This document shows positions 52,604 to 60,714 of a DNA stretch of 64,000 nt, piece by piece. The position numbers and the translations under genes were made by a program. This DNA comes from Eledone cirrhosa. Lineage: Eukaryota. Under the pieces are notes generated by a model that searched no databases, had not been told where the DNA came from, and worked only from the letters and a program-made list of their open reading frames with translations. Each line of letters begins with the position of its first letter. The first letter of the stretch is position 1. The stretch lies in the NCBI GenBank assembly GCA_964016885.1, contig OZ024741.1, forward strand, positions 353,152,001 to 353,216,000, given 5' to 3'.

Positions 52604-52855
52604 CCCTCTTCCTGCTATTTCAAGCGTTAACCTTCCATATAGTGTACCGATTGTGTTGTTATTTCTGTTTACCTTTTACATATATATATATATATATATA
52701 AGTAAGATGTATGGTAGGACGTATGTGAATCGCGATGATCACGTCTGACTTACCAAATATGTGACGGTAGCTAGTTAAGCTCTATGCGTATACGCAGAGC
52801 AGAAATATTATTAGTGAAAAAGAACAAAGGAACTATTATGACATTATAACAAGTT

Positions 52856-52908
52856 TATTGCCGACAGCCGTTTCGTCCGACCCCATGGTGGGACTTATCA
52901 AGGCATAT
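52856..52908 (-). ncRNA. Hammerhead ribozyme, U3-A8 variant (family 2)
   Basis: UGCC-UUGAUAA-GUCC.C.ACC.AUGG.GGU.C.GGAC-GAAA-CGGCUG-UC-GGCA. Confidence 0.78.
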
Positions 52909-53821
52909 AACATGTGATTGCAAGATCATTGTTTACATCAACGTATCACTCAAGGTTAGCAGTTTGAAATTGTTGTATACATCAGCAACTCCGCTTTAAG
53001 GGGGGCTCTTTTATATTAGTTGTCGGGGTCAGGGATTGAAGTTTAAAAATTAGACAAAAATATATAATTCACGCATCAACATTAAACCAAGAGACTTGGG
53101 GTCCCGTAGAAGCACCTCAGAAAATCCCTCAATGAGTGCATAAAGCTTACAGGCTCCAATACACCTATTAGTCTAGAAGAAAATTAAGAGGCTAATAAAA
53201 TAAGAAAATAAAAATATAAAGTTTCCCTAAAAAATATATAGAGTTCCTATGAAATTTCTTCTAGAGAAAAAAAATTTTTCCCAAAGAAAAAAAACTTCTT
53301 CCCCCGAGATCACGTTTACAAAATTCAGAAAACTGAATTGAAAACTAGGTTGAAAGAAACTAATCAATTAGAGGTTAATTCAGAGAGCCTTCCATAAATC
53401 TCTCAGAAAAGGCCCCTTTACTATTTCCAATAGGAACTTCTTCCGAGAGACCCTTCGAAGAATTAACATTTTAGAGAGCCTTTGAGGATAAATATAAAAA
53501 CGAATTGAGGAAAATTATACATTAAAAGTTAAAAATTAAAAATTACGGTATTTGGGATATCCGAGGAATCTTCAAAGGGCTGCTTCAACAGATACAACTT
53601 AGGCATACTAGGTACAATAATCTAAGCAATTTAAGCAATTTAATTAGGGAGCAATTCAAGGAGTTTATCAAGTTGGGCAAGATTAAAGAAAGTGGTAACT
53701 AAGAAAATACATAAGCAAAAAGACAATAATCATAAAATGTATCCTTAAGAAGGTACAAGGTAGCTTCAGTGATCTAACCCTGTATTATCACAAAAAAACA
53801 TTCTAAAATTATTGATACAGG

Positions 53822-53978
53822 ATTAAAAATTATTACAAAATCATTACAAAATTACCACAAAATCATTACAAAATTATCAAATCATCACAAAATTACCACA
53901 AAATCATTACAAAACTATCAAATTATCATAAAATTATCGCAAAATTATTACAAAATTATCATAAAATTGTTACAAAAA
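53822..53978. repeat. 11-12-bp tandem repeat (CAAAATTATCA-like) inside the family 2 3' region
   Basis: AAAATTACCACAAAATCATTAC-type units. Confidence 0.8.
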
Positions 53979-57237: not shown

Positions 57238-57833
57238 TTCGTTTTTATATTTATCCTCAAAGGCTCTCTAAAATGTTAATTCTTCGAAGGGTCTCTCGGA
57301 AGAAGTTCCTATTGGAAATAGTAAAGGGGCCTTTTCTGAGAGATTTATGGAAGGCTCTCTGAATTAACCTCTAATTGATTAGTTTCTTTCAACCTAGTTT
57401 TCAATTCAGTTTTCTGAATTTTGTAAACGTGATCTCGGGGGATGAAGTTTTTTTTCTTTGGGAAAAAATTTTTTTCTCTAGAAGAAATTTCATAGGAACT
57501 CTATATATTTTTTAGGGAAACTTTATATTTTTATTTTCTTATTTTATTAGCCTCTTAATTTTCTTCTAGACTAATAGGTGTATTGGAGCCTGTAAGCTTT
57601 ATGCACTCATTGAGGGATTTTCTGAGGTGCTTCTACGGGACCCCAAGTCTCTTGGTTTAATGTTGATGCGTGAATTATATATTTTTGTCTAATTTTTAAA
57701 CTTCAATCCCTGACCCCGACAACTAATATAAAAGAGCCCCCCTTAAAGCGGAGTTGCTGATGTATACAACAATTTCAAACTGCTAGCCTTGAGTGATACG
57801 TTGATGTAAACAATGATCTTGCAATCACATGTT

Positions 57834-57886
57834 ATATGCCTTGATAAGTCCCACCATGGGGTCGGACGAAACGGCTGTCGGCAATA
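57834..57886 (+). ncRNA. Hammerhead ribozyme, U3-A8 variant (family 2, inverted arm)
   Basis: Identical motif to 52856-52908 on the opposite strand. Confidence 0.78.
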
Positions 57887-60714
57887 AACTTGTTATAATG
57901 TCATAATAGTTCCTTTGTTCTTTTTCACTAATATATATATATATATATATATATATATATATGTGTGTGTGTGTGTTTGTGTGTGTGTGTGTGTGTGTGT
58001 GTGTGTGTGTGTGTGTGTGTGTGTGTGTGTGTGTGTTGCATGTGCGTGTGTGAATCTGTGTGCGTGTATAGGTATATATATATATATATATGTATACACC
58101 CATGATATATATATGTGTGAGCCTGTGTGCAGAGATATTTGTAGTATGGTACATTAATGTCAATATAGTAAATTGTCTTCTACAAAGATACAAAGCGATG
58201 CCTCTAGAGTTTACAATATCACAAGTCAAGAACAAAGAAACTGTCATTGTATTTACCTGACCTGTGCATACAATCCACCAATGGTATTCAACTCGAAAGT
58301 AAATAGTCGGCCATTGCATGATTTCCAATGTAGTTAGTATCAAACAAGCTTTAAACACTTGATAGTAACTAGATTGGATTGTTGCTCTTCTAAGTTCAAA
58401 TTTCACAAAACTTAACACTGCCTTGCTCTCCCTACATAGCCCAATACCTTTTGTGTTGCAGAATAATACACTCCACTTCCTCCTTACAAGATTGCTCTTT
58501 TACGTTATAAAGAATTTGTTTCGTCAATTTGTCTTAACAGTCTGTACTGAGCAATATAATGTTAACTAGCTTCAGAAATCATGTAAACATGCTTTATAAA
58601 ATATATCATGTTTTCAGAAATTGACTTTAGTAGTATTGGGAAAATGCTCTCGTCCAAACACGAATGACCATTGTGATCATAGTCGATCACTAGATATGCA
58701 TGCATAGTCCCGTAGTTCCCGAGGTAGTCATATGGGTGCCATATTGACATACAGCGTGTCTAAGGCATTTTAAAACCTGGTTGAGCCGCCCATCTCCTCT
58801 ACAGGTCTGAATACAGCTGATTTCTTCCAGACTATAAAGAGTGAGAGAATGGAAGTGATATATATATATATATATATATATATATATATATATAGACAGA
58901 GAGAGAGAGAGAGAGAGAGAGAGAGAGAGAAAGAGAGAGAGAGAGAGAGAATCAAGCCCAATACTTAACTGGTACTTTTTTATTTTATCGACCTCAAATG
59001 GATGAAAGATAAAGTTGATCTCGGCAAGATTTGAACTCAGAGAGCAGAGTGCCGAAACGAATACCGCAAAACATTCTATCCAACGTTCTAACGTCTCTGC
59101 CAAATTCGCCGCTAACCACTAGATATAATAGTTGAGAAAATCAAATAAAGTATCCCTCGAGAGGTGAAAATGGTCACAGAGGTGCTGTGGGGTGCAGGTT
59201 TCCTCACAGCTGCACTTGTCCACATATTTTCGTTTCGAGGGTTACTTTCTCGGATTTCCTCAGCTATCATTTATAATGATTTATTAGGACATACACATTT
59301 AAAATGTTCAATGTTGTTTATTTAAATGAGAGATAAATGTTTTTAAAAAATTGTGAAATAGATAGAAATATTTAGATATGTATCAATAACTCAACTCTGA
59401 ATATCCATTCCTAATATTAGTTATATAACCTCATGCATATGATTGGATAATGTGAAAGAGGGCATTATGTCTAGTTTCATTAGTTGATATATTTACATGA
59501 ATGTGACTTAGCATATTAGAATCAGTTGGAAGGATTTGCATATTTACAGGAACTGCTGGAGCAAGTAACTTGTAGCTAGAAGCCATCCTACTTAAAGCCA
59601 CTCAAGAGGAAATTGGAAATATATTAAAATTTCATACATAAGTGAATCAAGCGAATATAACCTACCTAGCAGAACAGTGAGTGCTTATGGCACGGCCTGG
59701 GCTCACGATTTCTTAGTAATCAATATTAGTTGATAGAAATGAAATTACTATGTAGTTTACTGTAGATATTGGACTAACAACTCACGGATGAAGGTTTCTT
59801 ATCTTTATAAACATATATCTTTTCTCAACACACTTGATGTTGTTCCTCAGGAGAGGTTATGAATTACTTATATGGTATGTGTTCAAACCTTCTACTAGTG
59901 TTTAGTAGCATATCTCTTATGTCTCCATTCTCAGCACACTCAATTTTGCCTTCCTCGGTAGAGGTATTAGATTACTTAATCATAGGATGTGTTCAAATCT
60001 TCCACTGGTATTTTGCTGTATTTCTGTAATAGGCAGCTGTGTATTCCATGAGCAGGTTTCCTTTAATATAATTCCTAAGCTAAATCAGTATGACACAATA
60101 TGGCAATGTTGGACCTTCAAATTATGGATATAATCTATCCGACGGGGTTTCACAGTTTCCTCGTTTCCCAAATTCACTCATAAGGTTTCAGTCAGTTTGA
60201 GTGAATGGTAAAGATACTTGCCATAGATGACATACACTGGAATCGAATCTGGGACCTCGTGATTGCGAAGTAAACTTTTTAATCACGCAAGCATAACTGC
60301 ATATTCTATATTGATTCAGTTAACCAAGCTATTGGGATAATGTGGTATTGTAATGTTTTATATATTAGTATAATAAAGGCGTATAGCTTAGTGTTAAGGA
60401 GCTCGGCCCACGGTCGTAAGGCTGTGAGTTCGATTCATGGCAGCGCGGTGTGTCGTTCTGCAAGACACTATATTTCACGTTGCTCCAGTCAACTCAGCAG
60501 GAAAAAAAATGAATTGTACCTGTAATTTAGAGAGCCAAATTTATGTAACTTTTGTAACACTGATTCTACATGAGAACCACGTTACGCGTGCACGTATCTG
60601 TGGAGTACTCAGTCTTTTGTCCGTTAATTTTATGATCTGGCTGTCGTGATGTCAACAGACAACATTGATACACTATCTCTATCGATTTGATAAAACACTA
60701 TAAGCTGGTACTCT

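Follow-up and report, generated by a model that had tools for sequence, protein, structure and literature searches.

We identified, in a 64,000-nucleotide (nt) window of the Eledone cirrhosa genome (GenBank assembly GCA_964016885.1, contig OZ024741.1, positions 353,152,001 to 353,216,000 of the forward strand), a 5′-truncated head-to-head insertion of a young Hydra-clade Penelope-like element (PLE) family. The insertion, at window positions 52701–57933, is dead and ends just before two conserved bulged hairpins that, judging from their sequence and placement, probably dock or position reverse transcription. We lean, with less assurance, towards a more specific reading – that the hairpins form a duplicated, clade-wide RNA element of the 5′ untranslated region (UTR) that would dock a dimer of the reverse transcriptase (RT) and set both priming sites on one RNA.

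To compare copies, we searched the 3.0-Gb genome with the 3′ region and with the RT, scored the best 40 of 358 and the best 40 of 2038 candidates, respectively (identity 91–100%), and retrieved 55 genomic stretches. Loci were chosen by internal sequence and not by their ends. Full copies consist of an upstream repeat, then ~900 nt of 5′ open reading frame (ORF), then the body, and carry two bulged hairpins (GCTC-stem-loop-TN-GAGC) between the hammerhead and the ATG. A unit thus reads hairpin 1, hairpin 2, ATG, ORF, long spacer, hammerhead and the next hairpin 1. Hairpin 2 sits 106 nt after hairpin 1, just past the end of the tail – the segment between the two termini – and ~70 nt before the ATG. 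An intact copy, L032, has a 5209-nt unit with its ATG at +79, an unbroken ORF of 863 amino acids (aa), the stop at 2671 and the hammerhead at 5011.

The hairpin motif is 17–30 nt long, occurs twice per element and is shared by six families of this genome and by unrelated loci from aquatic metagenomes. The pair was present in five of five sister families checked; in two of these the outer stem of hairpin 1 has become ACTC/GAGT, a compensatory change, and loops reach up to 105 nt. Upstream of 54 metagenome Hydra ORFs we counted 53 motif matches in 12,545 nt, compared with 8 in 247,686 nt of ORF. Among 51 such upstream regions, 34 had at least two matches, 10 had one and 7 had none. After dropping one region in which stem I of the hammerhead had been counted, 33 of the 51 contained two true hairpins (0.01 regions with two in shuffles), spaced 59–83 nt apart. 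Six published Hydra consensus sequences, read by eye, included three with clear hairpins (one with both) and one with variants, and the starts of two of the six lie 2 and 6 nt before a hairpin.

Consistent with the hairpins forming, we found an excess of inner base pairs among 98 distinct hairpins selected by their outer letters and 3′ context only, not by pairing. The four inner pairs were Watson–Crick in 96/98, 68/98, 50/84 and 26/55 cases, against shuffle means of 53, 27, 21 and 14. This excess appeared only in the register with a 2-nt bulge, with none for bulges of 0, 1 or 3 nt, and hairpin 1 alone retained it (37/39, 29/39 and 21/39).

The ends of the copies coincide with the hairpins. 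Leaving aside read-through cases, the window family has 69 hammerhead-bearing ends (three rows of the 69 being segmental duplicates), of which 68 stop at hairpin 1 (31) or hairpin 2 (37), with the last matching base 3–5 nt before the GCTC as read by eye. In five sister families 22 of 23 ends lie 1–6 nt before a hairpin (the remaining one comes from a diverged anchor match), and all seven metagenome termini that are not contig ends lie just before one (two further rows are contig ends). Overall, copies end 0–6 nt 5′ of a hairpin, at a TA-containing spot adjoining the (TA)n target; a TA lies 2–10 nt before the hairpin in 88 of 94 cases, a count without a background control. Tail length equals hairpin spacing, which in the sister families is 92, 99, 139, 166 or 172 nt. 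The two ends lie at different hairpins in 22 of 23 inverted insertions and at the same hairpin in none; the remaining insertion has an odd end. At another locus (L065:6011–6117) the inverted arm consists of tail only, 107 nt between the two hairpin sites.

The features of the window copy are as follows.

52701–52808, minus strand: tail between the two termini; it ends ~3 nt before the position of hairpin 2, which is absent here and present in full-length copies (L032).
52779–52800, minus strand: hairpin 1 (GCTC-TGCG-loop-CGCA-TA-GAGC), 4 nt downstream of the short terminus.
52853–52911, minus strand: minimal type I hammerhead with a U3-A8 core (core 52901–52895); predicted cut between 52863 and 52862.
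52701–53473, minus strand: segment that usually forms the upstream direct pseudo-long terminal repeat (pLTR); 5′ ends cluster at ~53398–53473, the inferred RNA start zone.
53474–55284, minus strand: family-specific 3′ spacer without a conserved ORF and without DNA similarity to sister-family spacers.
53822–54102, strand unassigned: two short tandem arrays whose length differs among copies.
54988–54999, plus strand: match to the YY1 consensus, of putative function; core intact in 41/46 copies, absent from seven sister 3′ regions.
55285–57055, minus strand: 5′-truncated Hydra-clade ORF with RT motifs B–E, thumb, two insertions, CxCX5C linker and a GIY-YIG domain with CxxC and CxH.
57056–57933, plus strand: inverted arm, which duplicates the 3′ region up to the short (hairpin-1) terminus and is joined to (TA)n.

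An earlier note on this DNA had described 878-nt inverted arms, and these are indeed present at 52809–53686 and 57056–57933, 878 nt each with 4 mismatches. The outer ends of both adjoin (TA)n, and a mirror hammerhead lies inside the inverted arm at ~57831–57889. The minus-strand frame encoding RT and GIY-YIG was also recognized correctly, with its stop at 55285 and two long insertions (~115 and ~45 aa relative to other Hydra proteins), but the genuine ORF spans only 57055–55285: the first ~70 residues of the frame are inverted arm read through. The body begins at unit position 898, so that the first 898 nt (~273 aa) are absent. Since this loss includes RT motif A, the window copy cannot be active. 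The tail is 108 nt in the window copy, compared with a 106-nt hairpin spacing in the reference copy, and 3 nt at 52806 are absent from many sequencing-run contigs. The palindrome reported in this tail exists at 52779–52800, but it is imperfect, with a 2-nt bulge that is its conserved feature, and what had been missed is that it has a partner and that the two together mark both ends. Contig depth across window positions 52650–53005 was ~20–40 times the ORF depth in three sequencing runs; this may reflect many short end fragments, depth not being copy number.

By its protein motifs, the element belongs to the Hydra branch of PLEs and not to Nematis, to which it had first been assigned. Hydra elements are defined by DKT, RWK, a CxCX5C linker, loss of CCHH, CxxC and CxH around the conserved E and N, (TA)n targets and a length below 3 kb (PMC8557442, available text). 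The family has the single ORF with RT and C-terminal GIY-YIG typical of Hydra PLEs, the change from DKG to DKT (PSDKT in L032), the N-terminal RWK motif as an RWR variant that is also common in other Hydra-like proteins, the CxCX5C linker, and CxxC and CxH as CSLCLSE and CPH. It inserts at (TA)n sites; the hammerhead near the end, inverted 5′ copy and tail are likewise described for Hydra PLEs with a C-terminal endonuclease (PMC8557442, available text). CCHH is absent from the family protein, as judged by eye from the alignment, as is the N-terminal endonuclease of Naiad and Chlamys PLEs, and the RT motifs agree by eye with the printed Hydra alignments. Nematis shares the C-terminal GIY-YIG and a zinc-finger-like linker with the window family but has a CX2-5CxxC linker, CCHH and, like canonical PLEs, DKG; none of these was found in the family protein. 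The earlier note had itself named an RT outside Nematis as evidence against its assignment, and this is where the protein motifs place it. In a quick-method tree without named references, the family grouped with three sister families of the same genome (Shimodaira–Hasegawa-like approximate likelihood ratio test, 99), and an Argonauta protein fell in the same part of the tree. The full ORF gave no family match in Pfam.

The family is larger than its published relatives. The 5.2-kb unit compares with 2.1–2.7 kb for complete Hydra families, and the 863-aa ORF with about 700 aa (PMC8557442, available text); the 3-kb limit, which the family exceeds, is a tendency rather than a strict criterion. Tandem full-length copies, for which the earlier note had proposed a search, do exist, as a three-unit array at C2:219.147–219.166 Mb. 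A sister Hydra family likewise forms tandem arrays (L076–L080; C1:420.37–420.40 Mb and C1:183.74–183.76 Mb), with 6.7–6.9 kb units, intact frames of 824–830 codons, microsatellite-rich 3′ regions and both hairpins; a core scan of these arrays found no canonical hammerhead core.

The hammerhead at 52911–52853 (core UUGAUAA) folds as a minimal type I motif and is a putative self-cleaving motif near the 3′ end with a U3-A8 pair rather than the canonical core. Its folding energy is no better than that of shuffles (z −0.40), and Rfam reported no hammerhead at the gathering threshold. Support for the motif rests on conservation of the core: U3-A8, described in the earlier note for the window copy, is kept in 83 of 88 copies, with T or A at position 7, while five are damaged and none has C3-G8. 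All Hydra rows of supplementary File S2 of PMC8557442 have C3-G8, and two metagenome Hydra loci have a U3-A8-type core, 91–98 nt before a hairpin. The same core covariation is known from minimal hammerheads in the pLTRs of Cercyon PLEs (Cervera and de la Pena 2014, PMC4209133, available text); these belong to a different clade, whereas here U3-A8 is fixed within a single Hydra family, C3-G8 being retained in its sister families. In two sister families (L081–L083, L095 and L086–L087, upstream of the ORF) position 4 of the hammerhead appears by eye to be C (CCGAAGA), and one L089 copy pairs U3 with G8. A second hammerhead-like core (CTGATGA ... GAAA) lies at window 52572–52600 on the plus strand, ~100 nt outside the tail end of the element.

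The ~2.6 kb of non-coding sequence after the stop was rightly described as part of the element. It is whole in 10 of 14 single loci picked by RT and in three of three tandem units; in the remaining loci it carries an internal 2-kb deletion once and is broken up by other sequence three times. These counts reject a secondary insertion of 53.7–55.2 kb. Across 46 segments the region is 2518–2949 nt long and holds no lasting ORF; a 161-codon antisense frame was considered and rejected, being present in young copies and lost in older ones. The 3′ regions of sister families, found with a distant protein, are ~1.0 to 4.4 kb long, and the spacer shows no DNA similarity to sister spacers beyond the ORF end except for one 45-nt AT-rich match. 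By contrast, the stop-to-hammerhead distance is 33–515 nt (median 146) for 51 matches from 79 metagenome Hydra loci, compared with 2.3–2.4 kb here. Because the sister regions are long but unalike and the metagenome loci short, an expanded 3′ region appears typical of this lineage while its content is not conserved, and the 1.8 kb outside the pLTR-forming segment is likely a passenger spacer gained separately by each family. Adineta vaga Pen1 has a comparable spacer of 0.9–1.5 kb before the 3′ pLTR, and the Adineta vaga Penelope families also share the inverted pLTR with tail and N-rich ORF inserts; there, however, the spacer is described as captured host DNA that differs between close copies, while in the window family it is fixed within families and different between them (Arkhipova et al. 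2013, PMC3846280, available text).

The earlier note took this whole 2.6 kb to be an oversized pLTR, in which a YY1-marked promoter would drive the tandem unit that follows, via a long 5′ UTR that may contain an intron. Some observations favour this proposal. The 12-mer GCCGCCATATTG lies at 54988 and the tandem repeats at 53822–53985 and 54012–54102, as had been reported. The 12-mer is what we take to be a full match to the YY1 consensus, in the orientation of sense transcription, and its core is intact in 41 of 46 copies. Tandem arrays exist, upstream repeats are longer than 1 kb in two cases, and a pair of inverted arms end at −2133 and −2136. Two independent inverted arms, in L025 and L051, stop within 3 nt of each other at window 54905–54925, just 3′ of a C-run that also resembles a pyrimidine tract with AG; an RT stall and an RNA end are both conceivable.

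The upstream direct repeats argue for a different start. Their 14 independent starts are −732 (three segmental duplicates counted once), −711, −697, −292, −709, −589, −751, −1715, −720, −363, beyond −1091, −610, −772 and −699. Eight of the 14 thus fall within 76 nt (−697 to −772), compared with 0 of 27 inverted arms (Fisher p 3e-5, the zone having been set post hoc), and none of the 14 upstream pLTRs reaches the YY1 site at ~−2290. We infer an RNA start ~0.77 kb from the element end, noting that common ancestry in a small number of source loci may contribute to this clustering. The YY1 site was absent from all seven sister-family 3′ regions scanned, and the copies are too young for retention of the motif to show selection. 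No spliced copy was seen among those compared: the sole copy with a 2-kb deletion (L064) has a filler junction without GT-AG ends and was rejected as a trace of splicing. No RNA run was listed as containing the element, and contigs from four sequencing runs of unrecorded type showed family variation only and were uninformative on starts or introns. The pLTR proposal is thus mostly unsupported and, as an account of the whole region, improbable; a second promoter at the YY1 site is possible.

We propose the following route for insertions of this kind. The RT-endonuclease, probably a dimer, would bind both hairpins of one RNA and nick a (TA)n repeat on both strands. From each nicked end, priming would occur just 5′ of one hairpin, and a short microhomology would then join the two cDNAs head to head, which would leave an inverted arm and place a tail on one side only. 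The template would be a tandem transcript begun ~0.77 kb inside the upstream repeat, although a template jump or a hammerhead-made circle might also place the hairpins behind the ORF. Counting the alleles that paired repeats share did not separate these three routes. The proposal draws on in vitro work on the Poseidon element PAc, in which reverse transcription starts at two internal sites bounding the tail, both strands of an AT-rich target are extended, RNA 3′ of the starts is required, the hammerhead is dispensable and a dimer is predicted (Frangieh et al. 2024, PMC11167929, available text). In PAc the tail is 30–40 nt and lies inside the ORF, compared with 59–172 nt in the 5′ UTR of Hydra families, and the available text names one AC-rich stem-loop and describes no duplicated conserved element.

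Several observations weigh against hairpin-directed double priming. The cited biochemistry comes from the Poseidon clade, not Hydra (PMC11167929, available text). Seven of the 51 metagenome upstream regions lack a hairpin (four of these from anchors inside the ORF), and in two of the six published Hydra consensus sequences no clean hairpin is visible by eye. The pairing excess of hairpin 2 is confined to pairs 2 and 3 – its first pair is almost always C-G and its fourth shows no excess – and pair 2 is T-T in 13 of 41 cases. The GCTC/GAGC stem is nearly invariant and carries little information on pairing, and the shuffle controls ignore relatedness. Differences between arm and body (135 of 8292 nt) indicate a shared source family, not one shared RNA molecule. 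Finally, double priming is not obligatory, since the inverted arm is missing from many copies.

Fixed ends 0–6 nt before each hairpin would equally be expected if the hairpins were sites of RNA processing or termination rather than RT docks, yielding two RNA 3′ ends that are each primed as in ordinary non-LTR (non-long terminal repeat) elements. Two RNA species used independently should, however, give the same end twice in about half of the inverted pairs, against 0 of 23 seen, and internal initiation on unprocessed RNA has been shown for the Poseidon element (PMC11167929, available text), which leaves this account quite improbable. The least probable account we considered is that the motif acts on DNA, as an endonuclease recognition site or cDNA hairpin at which ends are trimmed during integration: tails have been attributed to endonuclease resolution (PMC8557442, available text), the Penelope endonuclease needed the tail for recognition as recounted in PMC11167929 (available text), and covariation counts cannot separate RNA from single-stranded DNA, but the hairpin lies outside the inserted end and hence only in the template, and the tolerance of 59–105 nt loops in two sister families fits a folded single strand.

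The window contains two further features of note. A second PLE family, at 29433–34139, is not Hydra by its motifs and has no GCTC hairpin; its match to the Hydra element is weak and confined to the endonuclease (E 5e-4). It has two fixed ends ~60 nt apart, and several inverted copies carry one of each, while both ends of L188 are of the long kind; read-through of the tail end was seen in none of 30 loci. The stretch at 43245–43363 resembles 5S rRNA (Rfam, 56.5 bits), has many of its pairs broken and is probably a pseudogene or the head of a short interspersed element.

Published precedents in other PLEs exist for the long 3′ region, the U3-A8 core and the ORF inserts, which are lesser points. 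For the twin hairpins, we found no account in the literature searched, which did not extend to subscription papers, Repbase, figures (including Fig. S2C of PMC11167929) or bioRxiv supplements; there is no mention of them in the available text of PMC8557442, PMC11167929, PMC4209133, PMC3846280, PMC13282606 or bioRxiv 10.64898/2026.07.22.740005.

The hairpins bear on how Penelope-like RTs, the closest relatives of telomerase RT, choose start sites and form tails and inverted ends, for which the sole in vitro study found two internal starts and left the signal undefined (PMC11167929, available text). A hairpin motif with compensatory changes, lying 0–6 nt behind each end, offers a direct mutational test, and the hairpins are a simple means to locate the true boundaries of Hydra elements and of their non-coding passengers. 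If the proposed role is correct, one signal would explain why the ends are fixed, why there is a tail whose length is specific to the family, and why Penelope-like insertions are laid out head to head – and the hairpin pair would be a transferable start-here tag for a telomerase-related RT.

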